From: Moniliella sp. 'wahieum'
Lineage: Eukaryota
NCBI GenBank assembly: GCA_003971905.1
Contig: RSEE01000124.1
Coordinates: forward strand, 62,001-126,000
DNA: 64,000 nt
Reading direction: 5' to 3'
The notes below the pieces were generated by a model that was not told the origin of the DNA, did no database searches, and saw nothing but the letters and a program-made list of their open reading frames with translations. Positions 20,131 through 64,000 of the stretch are shown here, piece after piece; position 1 is the first letter of the stretch; the number at the start of each line of letters is the position of its first letter. A program made the position numbers and the translations under genes.

Positions 20131-20646
20131 GGCTCTTGTTGTGTCGCAACCGGCGTGGGAAGTGATAGGGATTCCAGAGGGGTACACCACGGTAGTGGAG
20201 GTGGGAGGTAAGGGTGTTGGTGGACCAAAGAGATGTCGCTTGGACCAACGTGTGGAGGAAGAAGAAGAAGAGAGGCAGGCGGTCGAGCGAAGATCAAGAG
20301 GAGAGGGGATGATCGATGGGGGAGATCGGGGACCGTACCCCAACCTGGCTCACTTGTAAGTGGCTGACCCGGCCCGCTGAGCGGCTGAGCGAGCGGCTCA
20401 GGCTGCGCTCAGCGGTCCCGGGGGGACCGTGCACACTGTTTAAGCCCGCGTTAACCCCAGCCGGGCGCTTGGCCAGGCAAGCCTCTCAGTACTCTCAGTT
20501 CTCAGTCTCAGTTCTCAGATCTCACGATCTCAGTGCGCTCCGTTGCAGCGCACCGAGGTCGTACTCGCCTTTGTCTTGGCGGCGGGCACAAATTCAACTT
20601 TCAAGGGAGACCCGCTGAGGTAACCAAGTGCGTGTGTCAGTCCTAG

Positions 20647-20683
20647 TCAAGCTTCAAGCTTCAAGCTTCAAGCTTCAAGCTTC
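20647..20683. repeat. Tandem heptamer (TCAAGCT)5
   Basis: tcaagct x5 + tc read directly. Confidence 0.95.
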
Positions 20684-28995: not shown

Positions 28996-29739
28996 GCTTG
29001 TTGTTGACGGACTCTACCCTTGGTGTTAGGCAGGACAAGTTTACTGCGCACGTCGACCAGTTGACCGAGGGCCCGGCCAAGGCTAAGCTATAGGTTCGAA
29101 ACACGAAAACGAGACACCACACTGTACTGTAAAACTCGTTTCCTTTTTCCTCTTTTGTGGGAATGCGATGCAGGTAGAGACAAACATGCCTATGGGTGTG
29201 GTGGCGGTACCAAAGTGTCTGTGGGGCGGAGACATTTGGTCTAATACTTTTTGTTTCCTGGCAGGTCTGGAACTTTTAAGAAGACAAGGCAGGGGCAGGG
29301 TGGTGCGCTGGAGGATTGTAATCAGAGTCACACGTCATGTAACTTTGAGCTTCAAGCTTCAAGAACGGTTGCCCGTATCCTTTGCGAAACTGAAGACGTG
29401 GGCCCCACTCGAAATGTCAAGAGCACTTCCAATTTCATGATGCATCGGAGGCGGAAAGTGTGGGGGCCTAACCCTCAGCCCTCAGCCCTCAGCAGCTTGA
29501 AGCTTCAACGTCAACGCCCTTGGATTGAACGCACAGTTTAATGATGAGCACTAGTCTTTCGCGTCCGCTACGTGGCAATCTACATCCAGGTGTTGGCCAC
29601 TACTATACGCAGGCATCAAGCGTGCGACTCTGTCCCAACTACTTCCGTCGTCGGGCTGGCTACGCCGACCTGACAGCACGGTTTTGTGTGCGGGGAAGCT
29701 GACATAATCCACCCCTTGCATCTTCACCGACCCCAGGCA

Positions 29740-32645: not shown

Positions 32646-33476
32646 TTACGAGGCCACCTCAAGAATAGTCTGTATAAATCGATCGGGATCATGGGCAAAG
32701 CGACCCAAAAAGAGGCCATCCACCCCGTCTTCGATTTTACGGAACGTGCCGGGCCCCGCCGAGCCGCCATAGAGAATGCGAATCGACGCAAATTTGCCCC
32801 CCTCAGAGCAAAGATAGGGCTTGACGAGCGCGCGCAGCGCTTGGGTGATCTCTACCACGTACTCGGCCGAGGCCGGCTGAGACGCACCAATGGCCCAGAC
32901 GGGCTCATAGGCCAAGATTACCTCCTTGGTAGCGGTTTCGGGCTGGGACTCGGCCGTACCCTCGGCAGTAAACACGCCAGCAACTTGTTGCCACACCTCG
33001 GCTACCGCCGCCTGCTTTTGGGACGCCACCGACAAGTCGTACCGTCCCACCTCGCCTACGCAGATAAGCGGCGTCAAGCCCACCGACAAGGCCGCTACGG
33101 CCTTTTGGACCACTTGCGCATCCGTCTCGCCAAACAACCGACGCCGTTCGGCATGGCCCAGCTCGACCAACTGCGCACCCGCCTGGCGAAGAACGAGGGG
33201 AGAAACTTCCCCCGTGTACGCACCCTTGGGCTCAGAAAACGCATCCTGCCCCCCCACCCAGATGCCCTGGGGCGCAACCGTCTGCTGCACTGCACAGAGC
33301 GTGACAAAGTCCGGAATGAGGAAAATGTCGGTGGCGTACGTATGCGCCGAACGCGTGGCAGCTACTTTGGTCGCGACTGCCTCGGCGTAACTCAGTGTCG
33401 TCGGCAGATCAAAGTACATCTTCGTCGACACGCCTACCAGTCGGCGTCGGCCCGAGGGAGCAAGAGGAAGCGACAT
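32646..33476 (-). CDS. Triosephosphate-isomerase-family protein, non-canonical subgroup, intronless
   Basis: GVSTKMYF, GAYTGEVS, ELGHAERR, AYEPVWAIG, LYGGS, GLFLGRFAHD (canonical TIM has NWKMN and LVGGASL). Confidence 0.9.
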   Translation of the reverse strand: MSLPLAPSGRRRLVGVSTKMYFDLPTTLSYAEAVATKVAATRSAHTYATDIFLIPDFVTLCAVQQTVAPQGIWVGGQDAFSEPKGAYTGEVSPLVLRQAGAQLVELGHAERRRLFGETDAQVVQKAVAALSVGLTPLICVGEVGRYDLSVASQKQAAVAEVWQQVAGVFTAEGTAESQPETATKEVILAYEPVWAIGASQPASAEYVVEITQALRALVKPYLCSEGGKFASIRILYGGSAGPGTFRKIEDGVDGLFLGRFAHDPDRFIQTILEVAS

Positions 33477-34226: not shown

Positions 34227-37200
34227 TATCGACATGGGTACGTCTTTGGTTTCTTTTTTTGCGCAGCATGGCCTTCGTTTTGGTCTGTTGGTATGGTGCC
34301 TCTGGCCATGGGGACGGCTAACGTGGTCGCTTGGGCGGAACATACTGGCTTCACCGACTCATTCGCTTGTGCGAGATTGAGATCTTGCGACCAATCGGAT
34401 TTGGTGGCTGTGCCAGTCATCTCCTTGCTCTTTAGGTTCTCCCTACTCGTCTTGAGGTCTCGTCTGGTTTGTTGCCCTCTCCATCCTGTTGTTCGTCGCC
34501 GTTCTGCGCTCTGCGCTCCATACCGTTTGGTGCTTGATGAACTGGATGGACTTGATGGAGCGTACGCTCTATGCGTTCTCCCCCCTAAATGGGGTTTTGC
34601 CCGTGCGCATTTTTGCACCCTTGTATACTTTGCCCAGCCCTTCGTTGCAATAGTGAAGGTTGAAGGTGGATCGCTCGTTCCTGCCGTGTAACCACATCAT
34701 GGGACGTGGGTCCATGGGCCATGGGACCCTGAACACGTTCGTACGGAGCCCCTCTTGGTTCCTGTGCTGCCTTGTACCCTCTGCGTCACCAAGTAAATGG
34801 CACAGACAACCCTCTCTCCCGCTCTTGGGACTCAGGCTAGAAACGAGTGGGTGTGTGCTGGCCAATATGGTCTCGGCATACTTCTTGGCGTTTCCTCACT
34901 TGAAGCTTGAAGCGTGAAGCTAGCTCTTGTTGGCAAGATCTGGATCCACTTGGAAGAGCTTAATCATTCTAGCTTTTGAAGCTTGGTGGATCCGATTGAT
35001 GATCCTCCGTTCTCCGTGGCAAGATCTTCGCCTGCCCATCGGGAGATGGTCTGCATTCGTCTAGAGTTGGCCGGGCCACGCGATATCCTGATTGAATAGT
35101 GATTCGCCAGGCCCCGCAAGATCCCAAAAGGTTCCAGAAGATCCCAGATCGCGGGAGCGAAACTGACTCGGCGCGCGGGTCACCGGCCACCCACTTTATG
35201 GTGGCATCATGCATCATGCATCATGCAACAGACATCATATGGCCTGCCCCCACGGGGAAAGAGAACGCAGATCCAGATGACAAACCGACCCACGTGCTAG
35301 CAGCGGTGAACTTCGCCCGATGTCTCGCCGTCCCTGCCGTCTCAGATCTCACGTTTCGTCCCTATAGTCCCTAGTCCTTCCCTAGTTTCTAGTCAGATTA
35401 CTTGAAGCTTGAAGCTTGACTGGAGCAGACCCGGGTTGCCGGAGGCTCTCCTTAACCTTACTCTGAGCCGACAGAGCCACAACCAATTACCGCACCCATC
35501 GATATACTCTTCCTACACACGCGCATCATTAACGAATCATTGCGTCATACCAGCACGCTGCAGGTTACGCCGATGAGCGATGGGAATCATCGATCATCGA
35601 TCATCTTAATCATCGATCTGTCAACTTCCCAAGATCTCATATCTCAACGTTCCACGTCACGCGTCAACGTCACAGTCTACTGGCCTGACCAGCTGACCAG
35701 GAGCTGTTTGTTTTCCTCTCGTGCAAAGGATGTTAGCAACATGCGTCACGAACACCATCTTCTGAGACACACTGACACCGACCGGCTCAGCGCTGACGCG
35801 CTGACGCAGACTCTGGTACCCCAGAGTACCCCACGAATCACGTTCTTGGCAACCATTTCGCCGGGCAGATATTATCTCAGATCTCCGCGCTCTTAATTCC
35901 TTACTCTCATTCGAAGTATTTAGCTCAACGCGCTCACCGTCGGTACTCAGTGCCTGTACCATGTACCAATTCGACTTTTTCCGAGCTGGTCTAACGCGGG
36001 CGGCCATCGACGCGCGACGGTAGAGGCCACTGGGATTGCCCTCAATTGATTGAACATTGACTCCGGTGCCGGTAGGATAGCGATCCGTCGGTCTCTTTGA
36101 GAGAATATAGGTCGATCATCGATCAGATAACTACAAGTAGCTGATGCTGTACGACAAAAGTGCTCGATCGTGCGTGCTCCAGGTCGGATAGTTGAGCACC
36201 TGAATCCTTTGGGGACAGTAGATGCAACGACTCAGTCTGAGTACTCAGGGTCGGGATCACTTGTTTGGGCGCGTCATGCAATGCCGCTTGCGCGTCGAGG
36301 GGAACCAGAAAGACGTGTGAAAATGGCTGATATGTGACAGTGACGCGTGTCATGTCCCCATGTCACCCGAGCAAACGCAATGTGGACCAGCTAGCAGGGC
36401 TAGCTACCAAGTAGCAAACACGGCATCTATTGCATGTCACATGTCACATGTCATGTTCACACCGTGTTAGTAGTGACGTCGATTTGATATTGGATCTGAG
36501 GATCTGAAGTGGAGCTGGAGAGCTCCGCCTGAGCTTCGTGGCGGGTGACTTGAAGCATGAGCGCATGGGCAGCTGGGCGAGGGGCGCACTGGAGATTGCG
36601 GAGGTTGCGATAAGATCCAAAATCCCCGAGCTGAAGCTGCTGAAGCTGCTGAGCGCCGAAGCTTCGCTTGAAGCTTGAAGAAAATGAGCTCAGATCGAGG
36701 GAGAATGGGACGATTCGAACAGCTAGTAACTAGGAATCGATGATCACTTCGACCCCTAGTCACTTGAAGCTCTGAAGCGCTGAAGCGCTGAAGATTGATC
36801 GATGATCGATGATCCCGATAGACGAATGATGCGTGAGGGTGCCGCATGGCTGATCGATGGCCAGCAAAGCGTCGCGTGATAGGCGGCAAGCGAAGCGTGA
36901 TGTGTGCAGGCGTGCGGCATTCTGGTACTGGCGCCGTGCGGGGCGTGGTTTCTTACCCCGCACGCCGTCTCAACCGCAGTTGTCCCGCCGCACGGGGCCA
37001 GTCTGCTGCGCTGCCCCACGACTCCCAACTGGACCAACTTCGGTGGGATGCGGTAACCCCGCCCTCGCCTCGTCGCTTCCTCCCTCGGCATCATCCACAT
37101 CATCCATCGCCCTCGCCTGGGTCTTGCTATCGGCTTGTTCTCCTTCCCCCTCCCACCCTCCAACCCTCCCGCCACCACCACTTTCGTGCTTTGGCCCACA

Positions 37201-48905: not shown

Positions 48906-51900
48906 CGAATGTGCTGGCTCGTTCAATGAGGAGGGCTCTCCGTGTGGTGTTTTGTGAATCAAAAATGGTTGCTATTACTACATGGTGCGTATATCCTGGT
49001 GCCGTTTGCCCTCCAATAGCACAGACGATGTCAATATAGAGCGTCATATCGACAGCAACGCAAGTAGACTTTTACCTGAGCAGAGAGGACTCTTCCAACG
49101 GGTCAGGTAGAGAGAAAAGGACGGGCGATTAGCGCCCAGATGTGGTTAATTTAACGCGTATAATGTAAAGGGAGTTTTGGCAGGTGCAGGAGCAGAGCAT
49201 GATGGGCAGGAGACGGTAGATATAGGCTTGTCGCATTTATGCGGGGAGTGCCAGGGGGGTGGGCAAAACGCAGCGCAGCCACATGGTGTCTGATAGACGA
49301 GAGACCTGGACGAAAGAGTGTGATGACCAATAATGACCATGTTCTCTTGTCGCATCTCAGCTCCACGAAAGTAGGTTCCAGATTCACCACGGCATCACGG
49401 TAAGCGTTTCGTCGTGACTCGTACCCACAGTTAGTTGGCACTGTAATGTGGGCAAGAAAGTTGCCTTTGGCCACCTCGGGAGGGTAAACGACCCGGGAAA
49501 AAAGAGGCGCTGGTAGGACTCAGTCTTTGGCCACGTGGCGTATAGGCGATCGCATGTCGACCTATAGTCCGATTGGAATGACACTCCACTCCAGTGACCC
49601 CAGCTCTTCTGGCTCCGGGGCTGGAGTCGACGGGTTTTCGCTGGGCCTTCTTCCCTCCGCCCAGTGTCTCTTCGGCACATACTCAATCCGTGGCTGTGAA
49701 AGCCCGCTTAGTTGAGTCGGGCGTTGGGTCCCTGGCTTCCCGCTGGGCGCCCTCTAACCCAAAGGAACTGGCTATAGAGTTCCGCGTCTCGCCCACTCCG
49801 TATTGCTTACTCCTTCGCGCCCTCGTTCCTCTCCTTCCTCTTGTCCTTATTGCATTGAAGGTTGAACTAGCGTTATTAGCTTACGAGAAGCTATCTCTGA
49901 CAGTTCCCGCCCTGCACAGTGCAATCATCCTTAGCTTGGTAGCGTAGCTACTTCTCGGCAGTTAACGACAACCGTGGTTCTGGCTCTCACAGGTGTGACC
50001 GATTTATCGCGCTTACCGATTGATCGCCCAGTTTAGTGCTTCGCCCTAGCCCCCCCCCCTCCCATCCTTTCTGTCTGGGCTCGAGTCTGATTAAGCCTCA
50101 TGCATCTCATGTCCTGAAGATTTTCATCATTTGAACAACTGCTATTACGCCCCTTTTCGTCGTGCCAGCTGCCCCAACTTGGAGACCCCATAGCCGTTGA
50201 GCGTAAATAAGGCAGCTTGTACCCAGTTCCCCTTTCCCTCTCTACCATCAGCTTCACACTGACCTGCCCTATATACCCTTGCTTGTTCCCGCGAGCATCT
50301 CTTTGACTCCCTACGAAATGATGGGCACAATTGGCAAAACTTAAACCGACCGGGGCCCCACAGCGGTTCTGTCCCGCCGCTCCACTGCGATGGTAGAGTG
50401 TGAGTGGATTTGAGATCTGATTTGAGCGCAACGAGAGGAAACTGAAAGACCCTCGGTCGCATAGGTTGGCCCCAAGCCTGTTCCTATAAGCGCTCGCGGG
50501 GTAATTAGTTAAGGGCTTAACGCGGGAGACAGTCCCAATATCTAATCATAGCTGCCAAGTACCTCGAGATCATCCGCCAACTACACAGATTCAGATTGGT
50601 CTCCAGCTCCGCATCATGTGTCCGTTCCACGCCCAGTATGTACAAATGTGTGTCATGTCCTTGCTTGAGCACTTCTTAACATGCACCTACTTTCGGCATC
50701 GCTACCATCGTTGGATGTGAGCACCGAACGTTTGGTATAGGAAGATGAAATTTCTGCAACTGAATCGTCCAGAGGACTTGTGTGAGCTGAGAAGGAAAAA
50801 GCTGATTCACAAGATTCAGGGTCAAAATTTCAACACTGGCGCCCAGTCCAAAGCTGGCCCCTGGACAAGGTGGTGAGGGCGATGATCCTCCAACTCGTGT
50901 GCAACATCCTCGATACTCAATTAGCAAACTGTGGAGGAACAGCACGAGACTAGACTGGGATCAAGACGATTGCCAAAGACTATCGAGTGCTAGGACCTGT
51001 GGACCATTCAGGGGATGATCAGAAATGGAGTGGAAACACCCATTGCGGGACAGGGGACCACAAATAGTGATATATCCGTACTTACGGATAGTACAACCGA
51101 TGACCGCCATTCCTGCTACTGCCGGAATGAACACATTGCTACAAGGATTCCAAATACCAGGGACGTACCCCAGATCTTCCTCCGCTTTGGTCACGACAAT
51201 GCAACGATTGTGCGCCACCAAAACGGCGAATAAAATGTTTGGACGTTGGAAACAATGAATTGACGAGTCGGACTCTTAATGGAGCTGCGTCACTCCACGG
51301 ATATCTCCCAGTCTCAATTGTATCCAAAGGAGCACCCTCGATCTTTGAAGAATCAGATGACAGACTCTGGAGCACCTGATCTGCCGGCGAGACCTCTAGT
51401 TCCTGAGTTAATGCGTTGTCAATTATATGTTTTCAATATAGTGATTAATCAGTCACAAAGAACCATACACCATGTTAGGTGTCCCATGTGAAGTCAAACG
51501 ATTGTTTGTGTCCCCATGATTGTAACAGGTAATAAATCGTCACGCCACTGAACGTGAGAACAAAGACTGCCCTTACCGAGTGTCAGCATTCGAGGCACTG
51601 GATGGAACAAAGAGCATCAGTATCAGACATCTGAACAATTTCACTCACTTCGACAGTCGAGCGTAGCGATCCTCAGTTGACCTGTGACTATCTCAGTATC
51701 CACGGAGAGAATGGCCACCAAAAACGCCAATGCAATTAGAAACGCTAGAAATTCTGGATGCCGTGAATATGGATCTTCCGGTTTCTCACGATCCTCGGGG
51801 CGGTATAGCAATTCCTTGCCCAAGAACATCCGCCTGCCGCGATTCCTGTTCACTACGCGAAGGTTGCTCTACTACTTTGCAGGGAAGACATTTCCTGGGA

Positions 51901-54900
51901 GTCAGACAGTATGTATTTCGAAAATTCATAAACAATGGTGTGTGGTTCTTGGATGAAGTGTACGCACTTCCCCAAAATAAGCAACCTTAGCCAGCGGATG
52001 TTTTCGTTGTCATTGTCAGCATTTCTGCAAATTGTTGTACAAATTAATTGCGTGCTTAAGTGGTTGCATGGAGATCATATTTTCCTTTTCTTCTTTAATG
52101 GGAATGGGGGCATGGCTCTTGTCAGATCTATGCAGTGAATATCTTCACTACCTCCGTGTCCAGGTCGCTGTGCACTCTCAATATCATGAACACTATATGC
52201 TACTTAGTGGTGAGAAATCTAGTCATCCAAACACATGTCCTGATGGACTGCGTATGCTAAGGAGACGACATATTGGGGCGGCATTTCAAATCTTAAAATG
52301 GGGCAGTTGATTGTATCTGTGGGCACTCAGCCAATGTGTGACAAGTGAAAGCAACACTTCACAATGTAATTGTCGACTATGTCCTGTCGCCCTTGCAACT
52401 AACACTCCATGCTGGTATTATACATCCGATTAGGCAAGTAGTCTCTGGGACTGAATTGTCTAGAAAGCTGGCTCGCTTTAAGAAGGGTTAATTAATTATC
52501 TTGGCTTCGTCTAGGAGAGTCGACTATAATTGGCCCTGCCCAGCGCTGAAGTTGGAAAAGGGCATTCCGGGGTGTTCATGCCCAGATTTTAACAATTCGA
52601 ATACCAATTATAAGGCTACTAGAGGCGGGTTTTCATTGCAGTTCGAAGCAGAGCAGCGGAATATTGCTGGTGAATCCATACATTATCGACACTATCGTAA
52701 ACTAACCCTTCCACAAAATGGCCATGCTTCAATGACGTGTTGACGTCTACGAGTTCGCAGGCTTGGCCCTTCGCCGTGCAGGACGAGCAGAAAGGAGTGT
52801 CCCCGGTATGATGTTGTGCCCACCTTTGTTGGAGAGCAGCGATCAAAGAGATGTTAAACGCGGGCGGGATGACTAGGCCGGATTGATACTTCTGCGAAAA
52901 GTTGGGATCAGAAAGCCAGCAATCCTCATCCACTTTCCGAGCCTATCTTTTCGAAGTGGCGGACGTTCCTTGGGCAGGTAGGCGCTCCAAAGGAAGCCAA
53001 CGTACAGGGGTTGTGAACCGACATTTTAATAGATTCTCTGGACGGAATCAAAGCAGCAATTTGTAGCACTCCCTCAATGTTATTGATGCGTATTGTGTGG
53101 CTAAATGGGGATGGAGGTGCTACAGTCATACCATTCACTGCGTAGCTCCGACAAGAGTTATGCTTCCATTCACAGGAAGGGAAAAGATAAGAACGCTGGC
53201 TGCAGAGAGCCATTGGTCACATATCACCAGCCAATTAATCCACATAAGAAGATGTGCTTGGGAACACTGACTACTGATGATGAGCCAGCGATGGTCGCGC
53301 TATTCTCAAGTTCTCAGAAGATATACGCTTTCGGTCAGCGTGCCCACAGCATCGTTAAATCCGCTTCCACCCCATCCACAAAAAGGCTTTCAGGGTCGGG
53401 ACTAAGAACCGCTTTTTGGGCATAATCCCATCCCGCACGACCGAAAGAAGGAGGGGCGTGCATGGCATTGGCATGTTCATATTTGCCTGCTCTTCTCATG
53501 TCTTCCATCCCACTCATGGAATTTCTCGAACCGTCTAGGATGAAGGCACCAATCAGGTATGAACGGTTTTGCATCACGTTGTTGGATCCGACAGTCACTA
53601 TTTCGCGACGACTGCTGATATGTCACGAAGCGAGCTTTGGGTCGCCTTTTACAGCCACATCCACTCCCTTATCGTAGCTCTTGCTTCTCCCTTTCTCTAC
53701 ATATCACTACTTAAGTTCTCTATTAATCGCTATCGTGACTCGGATTCTCGGCTATCTACGAAACCGCCGGTTGACAACACTCATCTCTTCTCCGTTGGCG
53801 CTCATCTAAAAATCCAAAACACTACTCATGGTTTCGACTTGGTTTTCATAAGACCTGGAGTTCGGATGGTCCTCAATGGCGATGCAATCGTACTGGTAGC
53901 GGTGGTGGTCTAAACCAACCAGCAACGCCTACAAAGGAACATCAAGCAGCGGGTCGCCACCAGGGGCCAAGCTGCGGAACAAAAAAAAGGGAGAGAAGAC
54001 TACGAAAATCCTATAGGCCTGGGGAGGAATTGAAGGGACGTTGGCCAAAGCAGGGAGCCACCGATGGCTCAATAGGTTTCTCGCCTCATTTCTCGTCTTG
54101 AGCTCGCTTTGGCCTTGACCCTCGGCCTCGTCTCTCACCTCGTGCCTTATGTCGTGCTTCGTCCTTTTCCCCCCCTTTTCGTTTTGTAGACGTGCCGTTC
54201 ATCTTTAGTTTGTTCCCCTTCTCTTCTATCAAGCATGCCTGTTCTTCGATCAAATCGTGATGGCCCACCAAGCGGCCCATCATTCTTTTCCCCTCACCCT
54301 TCTTTTAGGAAAACTCCATTCCAGAAGAACTACCCTCCGATCAGCTCGCTTGTCCTTCTTCGCCCATCGGAGTGCCGCACTTTCTCGTCCGGCCCTTAAC
54401 GTGAAACCTCCTTGTAGACGCTACCTGGCTCTGCCTGTGACGAACAGCAAAGCACTGCCCGCGACCCTCCTACGTTCAGTCCAGTGTTCCCTTGTGACAC
54501 GCGCGTTCAGTCTTCCGTGAGTATTGTCTCGGATGGGCAGGGAAGGCCCCGCCTGGGAAGCCAGCCATCCCGTTGCAGGGTCGATCCTATGAGCCGCAGC
54601 GTCATCTTTCCAGTCAGGCGATCTCATATACGTCGAGGCGATGACGACGTGTCCTTCCCCGCATCGCCTTCCAAGAGGGGGTCACAAACCCAGATTGTAT
54701 CCTCGTTCGGTTCGGGCCAACAACACCACACCTCATCTGACCACTGCCGCCGCTGTCTCTCCTCTTTTTATGACAATGATGTTCATATACATCGCCAGCC
54801 CCCCGCCACCGAGCTCTTGGGTCACGCCATGTGCGCTGTTAAAAGCATGATCAGGCCTCCATGGCCCCACTTATCATATCGTGGCCGCTGTCAACTAAAG

Positions 54901-57150
54901 GGTCCATGTGGCCTTCAGTTGTGCACGAGGTCTGTACGCGACAATATATGGTGGACGAACGATTTGGCGCCCTGTGCATTACGCCACAGCCCGAGGCTTC
55001 TGTCCCGTACCGATGAAGCTGGTGCTCTCCTGACCGGCTTAATTCCTGATGATCATTGGATACATCGAGCATGAGGTGACGCCGTGGTTCGCAGGGATTT
55101 GTAACCTGCGACATCTTTAACCTGTCGAACTTCCTCGTTGGTGGATACAGGTCAATGTGTGCATATAGCTAAGCCCATGCAGCTTCTTTCCCTTTCTCGC
55201 CTTGGCCGGTTCCAGCACCAACCCGACCTCTTCCTGCTTCTGAGCCCAAACGACTCGAAATTCGCTCCCAACCCCAAACCTATTTTCGATCGTAGGGTGC
55301 GATTGTACTATGGCTCGATGGTCGAGAGGTGTCGCTACGTATCCTTGGCGACGAGAGAAGCTCCTTCCCCTTTTGTCTGTCTGAATTTTACTTCTCAAAT
55401 GGCGCTGCTTTTCTATTATGGGACTGAGCTCTCGCCGTCTTCTGTTCTTTCGAGATTCCTTGCCCCACGTGGGAAGAGCAGTCTTTTTCTTGGTGACCGC
55501 TCCTGAATCCCGTGCTTTCCTTCAGTTTCCATCAACTGCGCGTTTCCATTTACTCACTGCCTGAATGCAGTAGGTCGTGGCTCTCTCCAAGATCCACCAC
55601 TTCCTCCGTCAATTGTGATCAACCCACAGGGAACTTGTTCCTCTCCTATTAATTGCCCCCAGCACCCAGCCCTCCAAGCACTCTCGGTCTTAGAGCACTC
55701 AGTCTCAGCTTAACCCTCTCCAAGTCCGTAAGCATCTGTGGTACTAATGTGCATTGTCGGAATCTTAACTGAGCGCCTTGCCACTCGCGGCAATCGCTCA
55801 GCGAGTCCTGTTGCTTTTACAGTTGCTCGTACCGAGAGACCCGCGGCCGCCGGCACTATCCGCCCTGGCTTGTTTGCGGATGAGACCCTCTCAGCTTCCT
55901 CTCCCCCGATCAGCCTTTTCGTACTAGCTCAGCAAGAGCTCAAAACTTCAATACATGACGCCCAGGTCCTCTCTTGACCGTTCTGGGTCCCATTACACGT
56001 CTGCACCTGTCTTGGAGGGTACCATGTGTAAGGAAGAGCAACATCTATCACTCTATTGGTAGGCCCCTTCCCTGGTATGCATCGTCCGCTCTTGCCTCTA
56101 CTATGGGGCCTGCATACTGTGCCAGTTCGCTGCCGCATGATCCCAATTACTCACCTGCAAGCAGCCTGTGGAACACTTGACTGCGTTCCTGTCGTGTACA
56201 ACATATAGTTGTGGTGAGCCTGAGGCCCGACGGGAACTGGGTCCCGCTGGTCCACCAACGCGGTGAAGGAATATTTGCGCGCAAGTCTGGCACCATTAAT
56301 GCTGCGGACTGGTTCACCAAAAGTGCTCCTCTCACGCGTCAGCGCACACCACGACCTCGTTCGTCTGTATTCAGGAAGGTTACTTCCCTTCTACACTCGT
56401 CGCTCGGATCCATTTTTGGACCTGTAAAAGTCTCTCGCCGGTCCCATCTTTAGATAGTTTGAAGATGCAAGCTGTTGGCTGTCTTCCGGAGGATTGAAGG
56501 ATCCTTTATATGGACAGGCATATATAAAGTCCACGTCTTGTATTACGCAATGGAGTGTCCATGTGTGGCCAAAAGGGTGCAAAAGCGGTGGTCTGTTAGG
56601 AGACCACAACCAATGGACGCAGCTCGTTCAGGAGCCAAAATAGAGAGCCAAAGCCATCAAACGAACGTGAAAAAAGAGCGATATGTCTCCCAAAGATAGC
56701 CAAGCGTACGACTGATATGTGCAGCAAAAGGGTGCCCGAACGGAGATGTCGTAGACGAGTCTGTGAGCCTCTATGACAAATGAATAACGTCTGCATCATT
56801 AACCCTTCACAACGTAGCATGTTGACCGCAGTATGGTCTGGGCAAGTCGGGGAAAACGATATTCTTGCCACACAGCGGGGGTCTAAAATGGTACCCTGTG
56901 CGCATCCACACAAGGTAAATATGTTCTTCGTTCTCGGCCGCGTGCAGCGTCTCGATCCACTCGTTGTCGGCCTCGATCCGAGTTTTTTTCGGCGATCTGA
57001 AACGCGCACAGATCCGTTTCGTACACCGTATGCCGCAGGTCGTACTTGTGGGCTAGTTGCAAGCTAGTTGTTGGCCGGTTGACGCGGCACGCTGGACGGA
57101 CGAGCAGACGGCAGCGATACGTCTCGTGCCGGTCCCGCGGCGCCATGTGT

Positions 57151-57262
57151 CACGTGCGGTGTCGATCGGGCAGGCGGGAGTGACATGTGACACGTGGCAC
57201 GTGACTGCGCGTGACGCGTGCGACGCGTTCCGGGATGCACGTGGCGGCTAGCGCGTCGCGAA
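57151..57262. promoter_or_regulatory. Cluster of CACGTG (E-box) and ACGCGT (MCB-like) elements
   Basis: CACGTG at 57151, 57191, 57198 and 57238; ACGCGT at 57214 and 57223; CGCGAA ~57257. Confidence 0.45.
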
Positions 57263-57472
57263 GACAATTTTTTTACTAGACACTGTCTTTTCTACCGATC
57301 GCCACGCCACTACCTTACGCTTGCACCATACCCATAGCAGCGGCTTTCCATCTATCCACGCAACCATACGCAAACCAGCATTAGACAGGACGGCAACCAA
57401 GCCAGTAGATAGTTGCACTTGCACAAAGCGCGATCGCGCAATTCCATCGACCACGATGCAAGTCCAGGCTCA

Positions 57473-59322
57473 TCACTGGGGCGCAGGCTTGATGCCGTCA
57501 AAGAACGGGTGAGTGAGCAAGTTTGCAGCGTCCCAACGTCGTGTGCAATCCAAATGCAGACACACCCTTGCCATATCCACCGCGGCATTGACTAGTTTGA
57601 GATGGCTGTCGCGATCGGGTACGTCGGACGTATCGAACAGGTGCGGGTTGATCAACTCGATCCACTCGGGGATGCGTCGCGTTGGGCTATGTTCGATGGT
57701 CGGAACGGTGCAGATAAACGTTCGGTTGTGCATCAGGGCCACCTGTTCCATCCGTCGTTTGCCAAAGATGGTCCCGAGTTCCATCAACGCCTCAATGTCG
57801 TCGACCGCATTGAACGGGAAACGTTTAGTCAAAAAGCCCAGCATGATGACCCCAACAGCCCAAATGTCAATTGCAACCGTTTGATCTGGACATTTGAGCA
57901 ACACCTCGGGCGCTCGGAATCCACGTGTGCCCGCCCGGTTGGCCCGTACCGATGGCCGCGTATCTTCCCGAGGGTAACCCGGCTGGGTCGCTCCGCCCCA
58001 TGCCATGGCAATGTTGGCCTGAACGTGTTGACGTGCCGGCGGCTGGGAGCGCGAGGTGGAGGAAGCGCCGGGCACGGGACCTAGACCCGCACCGCCGCGA
58101 CGAGAGGAAGAAGTGGTAGATGTGGTGGTGGTAGAGGAAGCGGCCGGACCCAGCATGGCGCCGGGCAAGAGAGAGTGGAGTAGGCCTCCGGGTTGATGTG
58201 TGTGACGCCATGGGGGTAGTCGTCGTCGGGAACCTGGTGATGGCACTTGTTGCGCCAAGTGGAGGAGTCAAAGTACTCGGCCAAGCCAAAGTCGCAGAGG
58301 GTGCCAGTGCCGGTGGCGGGGTTGTAGAGAAAGTTGCCAGGCTTAACGTCACGGTGCATTATATTGCGTTGGTGGCACCATTTCAAGGCGGAAATGAGAG
58401 AGTGAAAGTAGTACCGCAGGTCACTTAGGGGGATCTTGCGGAAAAAGTCACGAAAGTCCACATGCCGCACATAGGGCATGACCGCAATCACTTGGTCTTC
58501 GCACCGCCAAGCGGTTATCAGGTGCGAGACGCATGGCCCGCCGCGGATTCTAAGGATCTCAAGTTCGTTGTAGATGCGGCGTGGGCTGCTGGTGACAAAG
58601 ATGCGTTTAAGAGCCACATAGACGGGTGCACCGGTGCGACGGAAATAGTCGGCAGCGCGCATGTACCTTGGCCTTAGCTCCAATGTGGGTTTCACTTTGT
58701 GAGCTTTGAGCTCAGCTTGGTCCGTGTCCATGTGGGCGCGCATGGTGTCCGGCAGAGCGCCCGGTACCATAGAGCGCGCATAGGCCTCAATCCACTCGTC
58801 ATTGTCGTACGAGTCGTGATACACGTCGATTGCCTTGTATACCGAGCTAAATGTGCCCTCGCCCAGTTTGTCGACAATCAGATAGTGGTCGCGCAGGCCC
58901 TCAATATTGCGCTCCAAGTACTCCACTTCTTCGCTGATGCGGGCCAGCTCTTCGTCGCTGCGATCGGAATGGTGTGCCAAGCCAGGGAGGCCCGCGTCAC
59001 TGTCCTGGAGAGGGGGGTAGATGCGCTGGTGAGTAGACGTCATCGTCGGTGTTGTCGGAGGGGTTGGTACTGGTGCGGGTGGGTCTGAGGTCTTGGAAAT
59101 GGTCGAAGGAATCGGGGGGTGCGAGGCCGGGGAAGGAATCGGAGGAGGCAGAACCGCCGGGGGAGGGGAGATGGGAGGGGGCAGGGCGTGTGGCGAGACG
59201 GGCATGGGGTTGGGCAGGAGCCGGGAGCGGGGAGGAGGGTGGGTCGAGGTAGGCGCTGTCGTAGGCGTCGGCCGGGGCAAGATGGGACGGGGAGAGGGAC
59301 ACGGCAGCCAGCGGGTGGCCAT
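57473..59322 (-). CDS. CDC7: Dbf4-dependent kinase catalytic subunit Cdc7/Hsk1; frameshifts
   Basis: DKLGEGTFSSVYKA, VALKRIFVTSSPRRIYNEL, HRDVKPGNFL, LCDFGLA, RANRAGTRGFRAPEVLLKCPDQTVAIDIW; ACGCGT at 59771 upstream. Confidence 0.95.
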
Positions 59323-60251
59323 GGGGCGGTGGTGGGTGGGTGGAGGCGCGTCGGCGGAGCGTGCCTGCGTCTGCTGCTCCCTCGGCCGCTGCGGCGCAGC
59401 CCAGCGTCGCGCACACTGCCCCCATGCCGCCCTCCCGCCCCGCCACACCCGGCGTGCCACGAGGCACTGCCACTCGCTCACCCGTCGCCGCCCGTCACCA
59501 GACGCCCCCCCTTTTGTTTGGCACCCAACAACCGCCGTTTTTCACCTCCACGGTCCGTTCGTCCATGCGTCTGCGTCTATCGGGAGGCTTCCGTCGTGTG
59601 GGGGAACGGGGAAGGGGGTTGCCTTATCGGAACGACATGCAGCTCTGCGCTGGACAGAAGAGGGGGCGGCGTGTACGGTGCTCCTCTCAGATCTCACCCA
59701 AGCAAGCGTTGGAAGGGCCGCCAGCGGAAACCCCTGGAGCTTTTCTAAAGCTTGAACGTTGAACGTCTGGACGCGTTGAGCCCAGGCTGAGCTAAGCGTG
59801 CCTACTTTAAACGTTCAAGCTTCAAACTTTGCGACGGCAGAAGGACTTGAGCCGGAACATGCATCCCCCAGAGAAAACGCCTGGTCGGTCTGGTCGATGG
59901 TGCGTGTGGAGCGGCAGTGCTCGGTACTCCATCCGGCTCGTTGGCAACATGCACCTCGACAGGACACGACGCTGATGGATGACAGTGAGGAGGCTGGTAC
60001 CATTGGAGCGGTGTGAGGGATGACGTGCCAACAGCGGCCCGGCGAGACGCAGACAGGACGCAGCCAGCAGACGAGACGCGCTCTCCGCATGAAACGTTCA
60101 CGGGCCCGCGGCTGCCCCAGCCGTCTGCCTCGGCGCGTCCTCTGGCACTGCACCCGTCTCGCACGGGCCCGTGTCCATCCCATATGCCAAGGGGGTTCAG
60201 CCAGTACTCAGTACCCAGTGCATACTGCGTGACGTGACAGCTACTGCCACG

Positions 60252-60425
60252 ATATATACGCCCCCACGCTTCCTTCCGGCCCTTCCCCCCCCATCACCTT
60301 CACCACCTCATTTTTTCCAACGTACGTTGTCACCGCATGGGCGCTTTTACGCCAAAAACCCATCCCCGCCTACGTTATATCCCGCTAACCCCATATGGCA
60401 TCCTTCTATTGAACGGTGGCGCTAG
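60252..60425 (+). promoter_or_regulatory. TATA box (60252-60258) and 5'-UTR spliceosomal intron (60322-60425) of the oxidoreductase gene
   Basis: ATATATA, C/T-rich leader, GTACGT donor, GCTAAC branch point (~60384), TAG acceptor 13 nt before the ATG. Confidence 0.65.
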
Positions 60426-60438
60426 GAAGAAAGTGCTC

Positions 60439-61071
60439 ATGTCGCCCCACCACGCTCCCAAAGTCATTGCCGTCGTCGGCGCCTCGGGCCGGGCCGGGTC
60501 GGAGATTGTAAAAGAATTTGCGGCACGTGGCCACAAAGTGATTGCGATTGCGCGTTCGGTGGCCCGCATCCCTACGGGTCCCGGGATCGTGCCGACAGAA
60601 GGCGATGCGTCGGATCCGGCATCGTTGACACCGTTGTTGGAAGGTGCCAGTGCGCTGGTGAGCGCGATGCGGTTCGATGTGCCGGTGGAAACGTTGTTGG
60701 AGGCGATGGCGCCCGTAGGGATCAACCGGTTGCTGGTGATTGGCGGTGCGGCGGCGTTGTATGTCGAGCCCGGGATGCGGATGATTGATATGCCCGACTT
60801 TGATCCCGAGTTCAAGCAGTACGTTTGCAAGGGAGTCCAGTGGATTGATGTGTTGGAGTCCACGCCTGCGTCGTTGGACTGGACGTACTTTGCGCCTCCC
60901 AATGCGTTTGGTCCGGGCCCGCGCCTCGGTCGTTTCCGTCTCGGCCACGACAAACTCGTTACCGACGAGTGTGGTGAGTCATCCCTCAGCATGGCCGACG
61001 CTGCGATTGCCATTGCCGATGCGATCGAGAAAGATCTGCACCGCCGCCAAGTTTTCACCGCGGCCTACTAA
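60439..61071 (+). CDS. NAD(P)-dependent oxidoreductase, bacterial COG2910/YwnB (atypical SDR, biliverdin reductase B-like) type
   Basis: IAVVGASGRAGSEIVKEFAARGHKVIAIAR, RLLVIGGAAAL, LDWTYFAPP, GPRLGRFRLGHDKL, SLSMADAAIAIADAIEK..HRRQVFTAAY*. Confidence 0.88.
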   Translation: MSPHHAPKVIAVVGASGRAGSEIVKEFAARGHKVIAIARSVARIPTGPGIVPTEGDASDPASLTPLLEGASALVSAMRFDVPVETLLEAMAPVGINRLLVIGGAAALYVEPGMRMIDMPDFDPEFKQYVCKGVQWIDVLESTPASLDWTYFAPPNAFGPGPRLGRFRLGHDKLVTDECGESSLSMADAAIAIADAIEKDLHRRQVFTAAY

Positions 61072-61300
61072 GCGGGCCAACTGTTAGCTATCCTGTGTGG
61101 TATGGCTCGTACATCCACCGCGCCCTGTTATTCCCCCACCTCTCTTATCTATATTGTAGCAGCCTCTTCATTAGCTTCCCTCCTATAGTCGCAGTGTGTT
61201 AATAAGTCAATGTGTCCTTATAATGACTGCTTGCAAGCTTCAAGCTTCCCGACACCCAAATAACGAATGACACCAGGAGTTCCCCCTAGACAACCATGTA

Positions 61301-62803
61301 CTAACTAACCCATGTGCGAGGTGAGTTACTTCGCAAGGGGAGGGACGGCAACCGCAGCTGGCGCCGCCTTGCCGGCTTTGCTTCCGCAGGACCTTTGCGT
61401 CCGCGACCGCGAGGCTTCCGCGGCGCCGACGCGTCCGAGGCCTTGCCGGGACCCGACGCCTTGCTTGCACTCGACGCCTTGCCTGCACCCGACACCTTGC
61501 TTGCACCCGAAGCCCTGCCTGCACCCGACGCCTTGCCTGCACCCGCTGCAGCCGAGCGGTCCTGACGCGGCCTGCGGCTGGACGGCCGCGGCGGGCGATC
61601 CTGCTCCTCCTCAGTGGGAGGTGGGAGCTGGTACACGGACGGGGGTGGCCGTGGCATTTCGGGAATGGTTTGGCCGATCAACCTCTCGATCGACTTTAAG
61701 TTGGGGACGTCGTCCTGGGAAACCAAGGAGACGGCGCTTCCCTCTGCGCCTGCGCGGGCAGTGCGACCGATCCGATGCACGTACTGTTCTGCACGTCGGG
61801 CAGGGCGACATTGACCACGTGCGAGACACCCTGAACGTCGATCCCGCGCGCGGCGATATCCGTTGCGCACAGGACGCGTACCTGGCCCGTTTTGAATCCC
61901 TCGAGGGCGGCCTGGCGAGCGGTCTGGGACTTGTTCCCGTGGATGGCAGCGGCCGAGATGGAGGCCTTTTGGAGCGTAGCAGCAAACTTGTTGGCCTGGT
62001 GCTTCATCTCGGTAAAGAGGATGACACGGCTGAATGCCGGGTCAGAGGCAAATCGACAGCCAATTGTCGCTTCTCCTTCTGGCCACAAAGATGACGTTCT
62101 GCTTAATCTTTTCCGCCGTCGTGGCAGCTGGGGTGACCTCGACCCGAACAGGGTCGGGCCGGAGAAGGGTGTGAGCCAACTGGGCCACCTTCGGGGGCAT
62201 AGTAGCCGAAAAAAAGTAATTTTGCCGTTCCGACGCCGGCGGTAACTGAGCAACGATCCTGCGCACATCATGAATGAACCCCATATCCAACATCCGATCC
62301 GCTTCGTCCAGAACAAACGTTTCGACCTGGTCGAAACGAACGTAGCCTTGGCCGTGCAGGTCAAGCAGGCGACCGGGCGTAGCAATCAAAACGTCCAGCC
62401 CACCCTGCAAGGCGGTCGTCTGAGGCTTTTGGCCGACGCCACCGTAAATGACAGCGTGATGGATGCTCGATGGGCCTGAGCTGGGCAAGTGTTGGCTGTA
62501 CTTGGCGATGGAACGGTCAATCTGGATGGCAAGCTCGCGGGTTGGGGTGACAATGAGGGCACGGAAAGCGTTGGTTACGCGCTTGACTGGGTGGGTGGAG
62601 AGACGCTGAAGGATGGGGAGAGTAAAGGCAGCAGTCTTGCCCGTACCGGTCTGGGCAATCCCCAATAAATCTTGGCCCGCTAGCGCAACGGGGATCGCCT
62701 GGGCCTGGATGGGGGTCGGATGGACGTACCCAGCCATGGCAAGCGCCTGTTGCAGCTCGGGCCGCAGCCCGAGGCGGGCGGTAAACTTGGTCGCGGTGTT
62801 CAT
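61301..62803 (-). CDS. DEAD-box RNA helicase of bacterial RhlE type, intronless
   Basis: [132 protein letters not shown]. Confidence 0.93.
61428..61545 (-). repeat. 18-bp tandem repeat encoding ~6 copies of GA(G/S)KAS in the helicase tail
   Basis: gacgccttgcctgcaccc variants; protein [36 protein letters not shown]. Confidence 0.85.
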
Positions 62804-64000
62804 GGGCGGCTGAGGGGGTGAGTGATGGAGGGAGGCCAAAGAAGAAACACAAAGAAGAAATCCAAGGCCTGCTCTGCCCGGCGGAAGAAAGGAGGGGGGC
62901 AGCCCTACGTGGACGACGGCACAAGTGGAGTCCATTCCATCGATCGGTGCAGACAAAACTTGCACTTTTCTTTCAACTTTCAAAAGACGGGCTTCAAAGA
63001 TTCAACGTGTTGTTTGTTTCCTGCCATGGTGGAAGCCCTGTTCAACATGGTGGACTTGACCGAATATAGTTAGTAGCGGTGTGCTGCTGCCACACTTCAA
63101 AGGGCTGATCGCACCCAATGGACGGGTTGGAGCAGGTGGAAGCTTCAGGAGCTGTTGGCCTGGTAGCGGCGATGCTGCTGGAGTGAAACAACGGTCACCG
63201 CACACTAAAAAAGACGTGACACAACATGTGTTGGGCTGTGCGTACACCGCCGGAGAACCAAGAGGCCAACACCACACGGCCATCCTGGCAGCCAGCGCGA
63301 AATTAAAGAGAACGTTTGGGGTGAAAAGCGGTGCAGAAGCCTGAGGGACAAGAGCAACACTCCTTGGCCCCGCCCTAGCAGCTTGAATCAGGAGCTTCAA
63401 TAAGCTTCAAGCTTGAGCGCGCGGTCAATCTCAGGCCAGCCCCCTTGCGGTGCCGACAAAACGAGGAGTTATATACGGTTTTACCTTGTAGGCATTGTCC
63501 GGACTTTTATATGCTTCTACTGTAAGAGGCAGATAGGGGCTCTTTAGTATAGGTGGTTTGTATGATACAAGACCACTAACTACTTACTAACGTCCGGTGG
63601 GCTCGCTGGTGATCCAGATTGAGCATCTCGATACGTCTGATGCATCTCTTCTCCTTTTTAGACCGCGGTCTGGACAGTCCGGTCCGTGTGTCGTCTTGTC
63701 CCCATGTTTTTGGCCTGCTGCGCCCAGCTTGTGCTACAGAGCCATGTGGAGCCTTGCATGGACGCTTTTTAGCCTATTAGGCTTTCTGCCTAAGGCAACA
63801 ATGGCCTTTAAGCGCTATAAGCCGCTGTTGAATCGATCGCTCCCGGGCGGCATACCTCTCTCCTACTACATCCTGTGGGGCATTGGACTAGCTCTAGGGA
63901 CCATATCTCGCTCGTGTACAAACAATCTCTGTTCTCTACAACTTGCGAGGACCTGACCCAGTCATCAGTCACAAACAGTAACTTTACTAGTCAATGTTCA

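Follow-up and report, generated by a model that had tools for sequence, protein, structure and literature searches.

Two adjacent genes of alphaproteobacterial type, a putative short-chain reductase and an RhlE-like RNA helicase, beside CDC7 in a Moniliella contig

Genes of bacterial appearance that lie side by side in a fungal genome raise the question of whether they are genuine acquisitions or products of a faulty assembly, whether they arrived together from one donor, and whether they work together. Such a pair, designated here gene A and gene B, is found near one end of a 64,000-nucleotide stretch of contig RSEE01000124.1 of Moniliella sp. 'wahieum', which is referred to as the window. 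The earlier note described the two genes as adjacent, convergent, about 230 bp apart and next to CDC7, and these positions proved accurate: the genes meet tail-to-tail with 229 bp between them, and the CDC7 kinase gene lies about 1 kb from the pair, upstream of gene A and transcribed divergently from it, its ORF 58084-59001 (minus strand) having yeast Cdc7 (7p5z, 7.8e-44) as the top solved-structure match. The features of the locus are the following.

57473-59481, minus strand: Cdc7-type protein kinase, the native fungal neighbour, in at least two ORF pieces that carry the halves of the Pkinase domain
60337-60438, plus strand: possible N-terminal extension of gene A, 34 codons, from an in-frame upstream ATG (ORF 60337-61071)
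60439-61071, plus strand: gene A, a single intronless ORF of 210 aa, stop included in the coordinates
61072-61300, no strand: spacer between gene A and gene B, 229 bp, presumably containing both 3' ends
61301-62803, minus strand: gene B, ATG at 62803 and stop at 61301-61303, with PF00270 and PF00271

The surroundings are those of an ordinary fungal chromosome, the Pfam scans of the window (30 + 53 + 19 ORFs) having recognised Dam1, Cse1, V-ATPase H and CCT, as well as RPL18, Ars2, a mitochondrial carrier, RF-1 and P5C reductase. These scans also serve as an indirect check, by domain content, of the ranking of the pair in the earlier note as the most clearly bacterial-type genes of the 64 kb. 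The same kind of scan gave no recognisable gene in the 1.2 kb past the helicase to the window end (62804-64000), and no Pfam match in the gene-poor region of 49-57 kb or in the upstream extensions of both genes. A recognised native gene flanks the pair on one side only. TTAGGG-type repeats, a sign of a subtelomere, were absent within the window, which says nothing on the remaining chromosome.

The product of gene A matched the NAD(P)H-binding profile PF13460 at 1e-17 (65.1 bits, with a cut-off of 27.2) over profile positions 1-182 of 184, and is 49-56% identical to a bacterial, 202-aa alphaproteobacterial family. The glycine-rich loop GASGRAGSE and the C-terminus FTAAY are present in 29 of the 29 aligned bacterial homologues, and the residues G14, S16, G17 and G20 of the dinucleotide-binding loop are invariant in 30 aligned sequences, gene A among them. 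Its top solved relatives are bacterial chains of the 'putative NADH-flavin reductase' type, led by 4jgb (1.7e-31) and followed by 3dhn, 3ew7 and 4r01. The classical short-chain dehydrogenases are defined by the catalytic Tyr-x-x-x-Lys motif; since the alignment of 30 sequences shows no conserved Tyr-x3-Lys, and PF00106 reached 17.9 bits, under its cut-off of 26.6, the enzyme is named 'atypical'. Judged from its sequence, gene A lacks introns, and its predicted product is an atypical short-chain reductase that binds NAD(P)H and belongs to an alphaproteobacterial type. The candidate N-terminal extension is basic, with zero acidic residues, and the segment 60238-60438 that covers it has no Pfam match; it might conceivably serve as a targeting peptide.

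Gene B, as assembled, is spread over three frames and contains a TGA in frame at 62042-62044; it comprises about 499 codons without an intron once three one-base frame slips are read through. The domains PF00270 DEAD (2.8e-44) and PF00271 Helicase_C (4.7e-19), i.e., both RecA-like domains looked for in the DEAD-box superfamily 2 test, are present. By tblastn of the homologue P0123, residues 7-231 fell in frame -1 (66%), 246-333 in frame -2 (67%) and 332-398 in frame -1, so that the gene is collinear with its bacterial homologues and is composed of the following parts.

62081-62803, minus strand: helicase piece 1, with the Q motif and motifs I, Ia, Ib, II (DEAD) and III (SAT); PF00270
62044-62080, minus strand: two frame slips, at about 62079-62081 and at 62044-62048, which bracket ten codons in the third frame, as judged against 40 homologues
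61795-62043, minus strand: helicase piece 3, with motifs IV and V and the core of the second RecA-like domain; PF00271; 67% to P0123 246-333
61790-61794, minus strand: third frame slip, after LPDV and just ahead of motif VI, one base apparently lost
61304-61789, minus strand: helicase piece 4, with motif VI followed by a long C-terminal tail that is basic and of low complexity
61435-61545, minus strand: 18-nt tandem repeat in the helicase tail, 6.2 copies, Tandem Repeats Finder score 159, repeat family D1

The motifs of DEAD-box proteins are named Q, I, Ia, Ib, II, III, IV, V and VI, and this full set was found in gene B after reading through the three slips; the repeat in the tail codes for hexapeptide repeats similar to (G/S)AGKAS. 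The NCBIfam RhlE model NF007882 was matched collinearly by three pieces at its positions 5-237, 245-324 and 327-447 (of 456), with 273.4, 98.2 and 45.9 bits, values that could be scored in three pieces only, while the equivalog cut-off of 743 applies to the whole protein. This model was the best NCBIfam model for the first scored piece, and RhlE2 (NF053710) for the second and third. Because the summed piece scores are below the 743-bit cut-off, gene B is filed as RhlE-like and not as an equivalog, and its product is predicted to be a DEAD-box RNA helicase of the RhlE type. It resembles the bacterial RhlE described in PMC8266600 in having all DEAD-box motifs, a basic C-terminal extension and an RhlE-like sister in Aliidongia, but differs in its location on a fungal nuclear chromosome, in its score below the equivalog cut-off and in the hexapeptide-repeat tail.

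The closest relatives of both genes are bacterial, and each is nested in a bacterial clade. For gene A, all 23 organism-named proteins among the best 120 of 380 matches belong to Alphaproteobacteria (50-56% identity), and each of the nine nearest Atlas cluster sets shown is 96-100% Bacteria. For the first domain of gene B, all 20 organism-named proteins among the best 120 matches are bacterial, 14 of them alphaproteobacterial (58-67% identity), with the best bacterial matches at about 300 bits and the top DEAD-box chains of solved structure, eukaryotic or bacterial, at 141-155 bits. Neither a eukaryote-named protein nor a closer match occurred among the best 120 of either gene. These protein searches yielded no relative in fungi, where the host itself has no close annotated kin. 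Thus, the description of the two genes as 'bacterial-like' is borne out by these searches.

In the careful tree of 45 rows, which had been picked by similarity to the query, the helicase grouped with six rows of the Aliidongia clade (99/94), nested within a 28-row clade (100/99), i.e., a supported position among bacterial RhlE-like sequences that was repeated with a support of 95 in a quick tree of 122 rows and of 94 in a quick mixture-model tree. Aliidongia belongs to Dongiaceae, Rhodospirillales. Gene A joined 24 family rows with 96/91 in a careful tree of 48 rows whose bootstrap had not fully settled, and with 89-90 in the quick trees; its family is mostly of Caulobacterales, Sphingomonadales and Hyphomicrobiales, and the position of gene A inside this family is left unresolved by the tree. 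The two fungal sequences sit on long branches, of 1.4-1.5 substitutions per site in the case of gene A and 0.85-1.27 in that of the helicase, and their placement in the trees is less secure for this reason. The same nearest lineage, proposed for both genes as a check, therefore held at the level of the class, Alphaproteobacteria, and not at that of the best-matching orders, which differ; donors of different phyla were not found either. Most likely, both genes were acquired long ago from soil-type bacteria.

Both genes are also linked to native genes, Cdc7 being about 1 kb away, and are host-like by GC, codon score and intergenic motif. The third-codon GC is 0.71 in gene A and 0.70-0.79 in the helicase, with 0.66-0.76 in native genes, while the median of 80 bacterial orthologues of gene A is 0.845. 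Both genes also score high (43.6 and 49.5) by a codon measure that was trained on the ORFs of the host. A 13-nt intergenic motif of the host, AAGCTTCAAGCTT, is matched 38 times in the window vs 1.25 expected and brackets both genes by the following copies.

59817-59829, plus strand: copy of AAGCTTCAAGCTT with 1 mismatch, in the divergent promoter region common to CDC7 and gene A
61235-61247: perfect copy of AAGCTTCAAGCTT, in the spacer of the gene pair
63402-63414, plus strand: perfect copy of AAGCTTCAAGCTT, some 600 bp ahead of the start of gene B

The motif was also considered as a private integration signature and rejected as such, since it is common through the intergenic DNA of the window. 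The host-like third-codon GC and flanking intergenic motifs indicate that the genes are old, integrated acquisitions and not contamination. The affinity and the integration evidence agree, and the view that genes of bacterial origin lie inside a fungal chromosome is upheld.

A bacterial contaminant misassembled onto a fungal contig might be suspected where a native gene is recognised at one flank only and the assembly is visibly error-prone, but such an artefact is extremely improbable here. The closest relatives among about 5.8 billion clusters are only 56% (gene A) and 67% (helicase) identical, which is unusual for a contaminant; the third-position GC resembles the host and not the donor; the over-represented host motif occurs in the intergenic DNA on either side of each gene; and the genes are spaced in an un-bacterial manner, 229 bp apart and with over 600 bp of non-coding DNA upstream. 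Vertical inheritance, in which the genes would be old, of eukaryotic or mitochondrial derivation, and absent by loss from most of the fungi sampled, would accord with the alphaproteobacterial affinity of both genes, as in mitochondrion-derived genes, and with the poor sampling of this part of the fungi: the protein databases contain no close relative of the host, and a native TIM-like protein reached only 52-55% identity in its best named matches, which belong both to smut-group basidiomycetes and to Dothideomycetes. This origin is, nevertheless, very improbable, given that the best 120 matches of either gene include no eukaryote-named protein, that both genes are free of introns, and that the helicase falls within a shallow sub-clade of Rhodospirillales (99/94, 100/99) instead of a position basal to Alphaproteobacteria.

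Whether the helicase gene is intact depends on the reading of its frame slips. All three are of one type, a single missing base, and jointly return to the original frame; the tblastn segments overlap at 61783-61789, by the third slip. Introns were tried as the cause of the frame changes and rejected, as the alignment with homologues is collinear with 0-5 spare nucleotides per break. Similar breaks are found in the native genes of the window: in CSE1 at about 5218, where the frame changes at a run of five G between the adjoining Pfam profile positions 151 and 152; in a CCT subunit at about 18430 and 18020 and in RNase H1 at about 9365, in both cases with no room for an intron; and in RPL18 at about 41330 and 41560. 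In CSE1 and at the later break of RPL18, the loss of a single base was read base by base. Because breaks of the same kind without room for an intron occur in native genes, the slips of gene B are read here as assembly errors, i.e., single-base deletions, and not as decay.

The contrary reading, in which the helicase would be a decaying pseudogene and gene A the sole retained functional acquisition, can draw on the three breaks and the in-frame TGA of the assembled gene, on a density (three slips per 1.5 kb) at the upper end of that met elsewhere in the window, and on gene A and the TIM-like ORF, which are free of slips over 0.63 and 0.83 kb, respectively. It is, however, unlikely: each slip of gene B loses one base, as do the CSE1 and later RPL18 slips; CCT and RNase H1 likewise switch frame with no intron room; the three slips together regain the original frame; the helicase motifs are all intact, and the identity to bacterial homologues stays alike across the breaks (66% and 67%); and the rate in the window, about 9 slips in about 8.8 kb of checked coding sequence, already predicts about 1.5 for gene B. 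An assembly with about one single-base deletion per kb of coding sequence also means that apparent pseudogenes in this genome are untrustworthy as long as it is unpolished.

The assembly reading leaves two acquired genes whose adjacency has to be explained. The earlier note offered a single co-transfer from one donor as one explanation and neighbouring positions in donor genomes as a check, and the bacterial loci of the gene A family gave no support for such a linkage; a single donor is still conceivable, as both donors are Alphaproteobacteria. These loci were collected by a contig search with the 30-sequence alignment, which yielded 305 relatives, of which the best 80 loci were kept; a search with the gene A sequence alone gave 570 pattern matches and zero relatives. 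A DEAD-box helicase of any kind within 10 kb of a gene A relative was found in one of the 80 loci, about 7.7 kb off, and this protein is 48% identical to the fungal helicase and far from it in the tree, i.e., a distant paralogue. The conserved partner of gene A relatives is instead a divergent HxlR regulator gene, carried by 73 of the 80. In the window HxlR is absent, tblastn with two HxlR proteins having given nothing better than E = 0.7, and tblastx of 59400-64000 against the 80 loci found no bacterial remnants beyond the two genes, the rest being low-scoring noise. Gene A shares with the HxlR-paired bacterial reductases (4jgb, 3dhn, 3ew7, 4r01) the fold family PF13460, the length, the glycine-rich loop and the C-terminus, and differs from them by the missing HxlR partner; its branch of about 1.4-1.5 substitutions per site compares with a mean column identity of about 80% among the aligned bacterial members.

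A single contiguous co-transfer, in which the genes would have been neighbours in an operon or island of one alphaproteobacterial donor and would have been retained together as a stress or cold module, keeps some appeal from the shared nearest lineage, from the similar host-like composition of both genes, which fits a similar residence time, and from the very presence of two rare foreign genes side by side, in itself suggestive. Outside its main orders, the gene A family is sporadic (2 Acetobacteraceae loci, 1 Rhizobacter and 1 record labelled Arthrobacter), which makes a Dongiaceae-like donor with gene A conceivable. Co-transfer is nonetheless distinctly unlikely in view of the one nearby helicase in 80 loci, so distant in sequence and tree, of the usual HxlR partner with no trace of it or of any other bacterial remnant around the genes, of the best-supported donor orders, which differ between the genes, and of the failure to find a known functional link between the two families. 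A stress or cold-adaptation module formed by both genes is purely conjectural. By comparison, a whole bacterial siderophore operon has reportedly moved into a budding-yeast clade; multiple bacterial genes are adjacent in a fungal genome there as here, but those of the yeast operon were neighbours in the donor and belong to one pathway, whereas the linkage here is one in 80 from the side of gene A and the functions are unrelated.

The account considered probable is that of two genuine, long-resident alphaproteobacterial acquisitions that lie side by side and act each alone, the slips being errors and the adjacency not derived from an operon. The product of gene A would then be an atypical short-chain reductase that depends on NAD(P)H and falls in the 'NADH-flavin reductase-like' group of bacteria, with presumed substrates. 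In bacteria, an enzyme of this type may be carried as cargo by a redox or electrophile response under HxlR control; the fungus would have retained the enzyme alone and would presumably express it from the promoter region common to CDC7. Gene B would unwind or remodel RNA at the expense of ATP, as we infer for its present-day function, and its hexapeptide-repeat tail may have been gained in the fungus. The adjacency would reflect one insertion site and no descent from a bacterial operon or gene pair. The genes could have come as unlinked fragments of alphaproteobacterial DNA joined in one uptake event, or a permissive spot could have been struck by two separate events, the number of transfer events being a matter of conjecture. 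A more elaborate variant combines a single integration of two unlinked alphaproteobacterial pieces, both of them domesticated, with a helicase that would serve a eukaryotic compartment or process by means of its newly evolved repeat tail, e.g., in mitochondrial or cold-stress RNA remodelling, and would be co-regulated with the reductase by the shared 3' region; as a whole, this variant is quite improbable.

As a gene transfer from bacteria to fungi, the pair is fairly unremarkable; such transfer is well documented, chiefly for metabolic and stress enzymes, a pattern that includes gene A. It is less usual for the nuclear genome of a fungus to keep an RNA helicase of the bacterial RhlE type in apparently intact form, and no report of the transfer of such a helicase to fungi was found in the literature searched. 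If gene B is expressed, it would illustrate the way in which a eukaryote accommodates an RNA-remodelling enzyme of bacteria in its RNA metabolism. The pair may also serve as a small test case of whether adjacent foreign genes in fungi mark one multi-fragment integration or a permissive site.

The nearest counterpart compared here is the movement of single bacterial genes for stress-related oxidoreductases into fungi, as in the Malassezia set with a flavohemoglobin and 30 further candidates (bioRxiv 10.1101/2020.01.28.923367). The passages of that paper drawn on here mention neither the gene A family (PF13460, the 202-aa alphaproteobacterial type) nor the helicase, the word 'helicase' occurring 0 times in the main text. 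Unlike the hosts of the set, as these passages present them, the present host is not close to any annotated genus. As in the set so presented, gene A is an intronless bacterial enzyme of the redox or detoxification type amid native fungal genes, with no close fungal relative, and the best named matches of the host include basidiomycete yeasts of the smut group.

The window is fungal DNA. By Pfam, it encodes Dam1, the fungus-specific DASH subunit, together with Cse1, V-ATPase subunit H, a CCT chaperonin subunit, ribosomal protein L18, Ars2, a mitochondrial carrier, RF-1, P5C reductase and a TIM-like protein. The bacterial-like pair and its recognised native neighbour are arranged as follows:

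58084-59001, minus strand: Cdc7-type kinase ORF, yeast Cdc7 being the best solved relative (7.8e-44)
60439-61071, plus strand: gene A, one ORF of 210 codons with the PF13460 NAD(P)H-binding domain (1e-17)
62803 (ATG) to 61301-61303 (stop), minus strand: gene B, the helicase, with DEAD and Helicase_C domains (Pfam)

Gene A lies about 1 kb from the kinase gene and is divergently transcribed from it, and a 229-bp spacer separates the 3' ends of genes A and B; the coordinates, orientation and spacing given to the pair by the earlier note were thus correct, as judged from the ORFs and Pfam domains. A recognised native gene flanks the pair on one side only, with no recognisable gene in the final 1.2 kb of the window.

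The bacterial character proposed for both genes in the earlier note was borne out by their matches and trees. The best 120 of 380 matches to gene A are 202-aa proteins of 50-56% identity, among which all 23 organism-named ones belong to Alphaproteobacteria (Brevundimonas, Caulobacter, Novosphingobium, Sphingomonas, Sphingobium, Methylobacterium and Mangrovicella), and Bacteria make up 96-100% of the nearest Atlas clusters. In an alignment of 30 sequences, the mean column identity of the family is about 80%. The fungal protein shares about 54% identity with each bacterial sequence aligned; it retains the family's glycine-rich loop as well as its C-terminal FTAAY and lacks the classical Tyr-x3-Lys motif. 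With 23-70 more distant representatives as outgroups (exhaustive search), gene A grouped with the 202-aa alphaproteobacterial family in the quick trees (SH-aLRT 89-90) and in the careful 48-row tree (96/91, the bootstrap being not fully settled), on a branch of 1.4-1.5 substitutions per site and with no resolved placement inside the family. Family members were also seen in the loci L051 (a record titled Arthrobacter sp. TPD3018; Actinomycetota) and L012 (a Rhizobacter MAG; Burkholderiales), and these outliers of the otherwise alphaproteobacterial family could reflect bacterial transfer, mislabelling or bin contamination.

For the first domain of the helicase, the best 120 matches share 58-67% identity, and their 20 organism-named members are all Bacteria, 14 of them Alphaproteobacteria. 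The read-through with X at three breaks, used as tree input, has as its sister a tight clade including Aliidongia dinghuensis (Dongiaceae, Rhodospirillales), with the support of 95 (122-row quick tree), 94 (mixture model) and 99/94 (careful 45-row tree), the last tree nesting both in a Rhodospirillales-type clade (100/99). The three pieces of the gene match the NCBIfam RhlE model NF007882 collinearly; this model ranks first for piece one, the two remaining pieces score better against RhlE2 (NF053710), and the summed NF007882 score, obtained piecewise, is below the equivalog cut-off.

As assembled, the helicase is spread over three frames, with a TGA at 62042-62044, and its match to bacterial homologues in tblastn is collinear and leaves no intron space. 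Residues 7-231 of the bacterial homologue P0123, the tblastn query, are matched in frame -1 at 66% identity; the match moves to frame -2 for residues 246-333 (67%) and back to frame -1 for residues 332-398. Three-frame translation against 40 homologues showed ten codons read in the remaining frame, and therefore three slips, at ~62080, ~62046 and ~61792, each acting like the loss of one base and all three together returning to the original frame. Frame changes without intron space were also found in native genes:

~5218: CSE1, slip where five G stand in a row, with positions 151 and 152 of the Pfam profile contiguous over two frames
~9365: RNase H1, one break
~18020 and ~18430: CCT subunit, two breaks
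~41330 and ~41560: RPL18, two breaks, one within a conserved stretch

Altogether, roughly nine slips occur in the ~8.8 kb of checkable coding sequence of the helicase and native genes. Those examined base by base each lack a single base, and the apparent rate of loss in the assembly is about one base for every coding kilobase. The context C(C)AGAA is common to two of the helicase sites; that of CSE1 has the G run. Decay of the helicase, as a meaning of its breaks, was set aside because the native CSE1, CCT, RPL18 and RNase H1 carry breaks of the same kind, and it was concluded from the sequence that single-base deletions are probably frequent in the assembly and that the breaks in the helicase would be no evidence of decay. 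Assembly quality is an important caveat on the pair.

The GC content at third codon positions is 0.71 in gene A, 0.70-0.79 in the helicase and 0.66-0.76 in native genes, versus a median of 0.845 in the 80 bacterial gene A orthologues, and both genes are host-like on a codon score for which native ORFs were the training set. The motif AAGCTTCAAGCTT, of tandem CAAGCTT heptamers, has 38 matches in the window at ≤2 mismatches against 1.25 expected, is intergenic at all sites set against ORFs, lies upstream of both gene A and the helicase as well as in the spacer between them, and possibly serves the host as a regulatory or terminator-type signal:

AAGCTTCAAGCTT sites: 15742-15947, 20649-20682, 29347-29505, 34903-35417, 36664-36676, 59748-59829, 61235-61247, 63402-63414

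No database relatives closer than 56% (gene A) or 67% (helicase) identity were found. The host-like GC and codon score, the motif around the pair and the lack of close database relatives argue for a probably long residence of both genes in the fungal genome, the argument being limited because a recognised native gene stands on one side only; the pair represents two credible old acquisitions.

The pair would add to the known bacteria-to-fungus transfers. Such transfer of stress-type oxidoreductases is established, for example, in Malassezia, with 30 further bacterial candidates besides flavohemoglobins (bioRxiv 10.1101/2020.01.28.923367), and gene A, like that set, is a bacterial oxidoreductase-type gene, probably acquired by a fungus. 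The word "helicase" is absent from the main text of the same preprint (bioRxiv 10.1101/2020.01.28.923367), and the titles and abstracts searched yielded no report of the transfer of an RhlE-type helicase to a fungus.

The co-transfer envisaged by the earlier note was examined in the bacterial neighbourhoods of gene A relatives, of which a profile scan of bacterial genomes gave 305, the best 80 loci being kept together with flanks of up to 10 kb each. A DEAD-box helicase was present within the flanks in only one of them (L023, Sphingomonas ginsenosidimutans), ~7.7 kb off, 48% identical and, in the tree, far removed from that of the fungus. A divergent HxlR-type regulator stands directly upstream of the gene A relative in 73 of the 80 (tblastn count; identity confirmed by Pfam in two loci), about 100-500 nt from the match. 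The gene A orthologue and this regulator are a conserved two-gene unit in bacteria, apparently with no prior characterisation in the literature searched, and no traces of the regulator or of other bacterial genes surround the pair in the window. Because of these counts (1/80 against 73/80), a conserved gene neighbourhood of bacteria is probably not the source of the pair, at least as viewed from gene A's side, and the suggestion of neighbouring donor genes finds no support from that side. The nearest lineage, which the earlier note proposed to compare between the two proteins, is Alphaproteobacteria for both at the level of class, and the best-placed donor orders differ. One donor cell, whose unlinked fragments were joined at one break, would agree with the shared class and with a gene A position not resolved inside its family; this reading and that of two separate insertions into a permissive site are equally possible. 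The functional module suggested for the two genes finds no support.

Gene A is one of the small atypical reductases of bacteria termed "NADH-flavin reductase-like" (solved relatives 4jgb, 3dhn, 3ew7 and 4r01), and its bacterial pairing with HxlR points to a function under redox or electrophile stress; the fungal protein is predicted to act as a stand-alone NAD(P)H-dependent reductase. The helicase, with the full DEAD-box motif set and a basic tail, is most likely an ATP-dependent RNA remodeller. Its C-terminal tail contains an 18-nt tandem repeat (61435-61545, minus strand; 6.2 copies) encoding (G/S)AGKAS-like hexapeptides, with no counterpart in P0123 over this interval of the tblastn alignment. 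For both genes, substrates, cell location and expression are inferred. Upstream in-frame ATGs would add 34 residues to gene A (60337-60438, plus strand) and 44 to gene B (62804-62935, minus strand); the putative gene A extension is basic and without acidic residues, as targeting peptides often are.

Elsewhere in the window, an intact TIM-barrel, triosephosphate-isomerase-like ORF (32646-33476, minus strand) has the look of a second, divergent paralogue of TIM, with 76% identity to one match without an organism name and 52-55% to the best organism-named fungal matches (Ustilago, Kalmanozyma, Tilletiaria, also Dothideomycetes), the low identity to the named matches indicating therefore a host without a close annotated relative. 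The ORF at 19789-20349 (minus strand) shows weak similarity to the N-terminal domain of cyanate hydratase (E = 2e-4, under the Pfam cut-off). The gene-poor stretch of ~49000-57400 adjoining CDC7, with a GC content of 0.42-0.54 versus ~0.58 elsewhere and Pfam matches in none of its 17 ORFs of at least 100 aa, is near the foreign genes and could represent plastic DNA of some kind, for instance repeat-derived or centromere-like.
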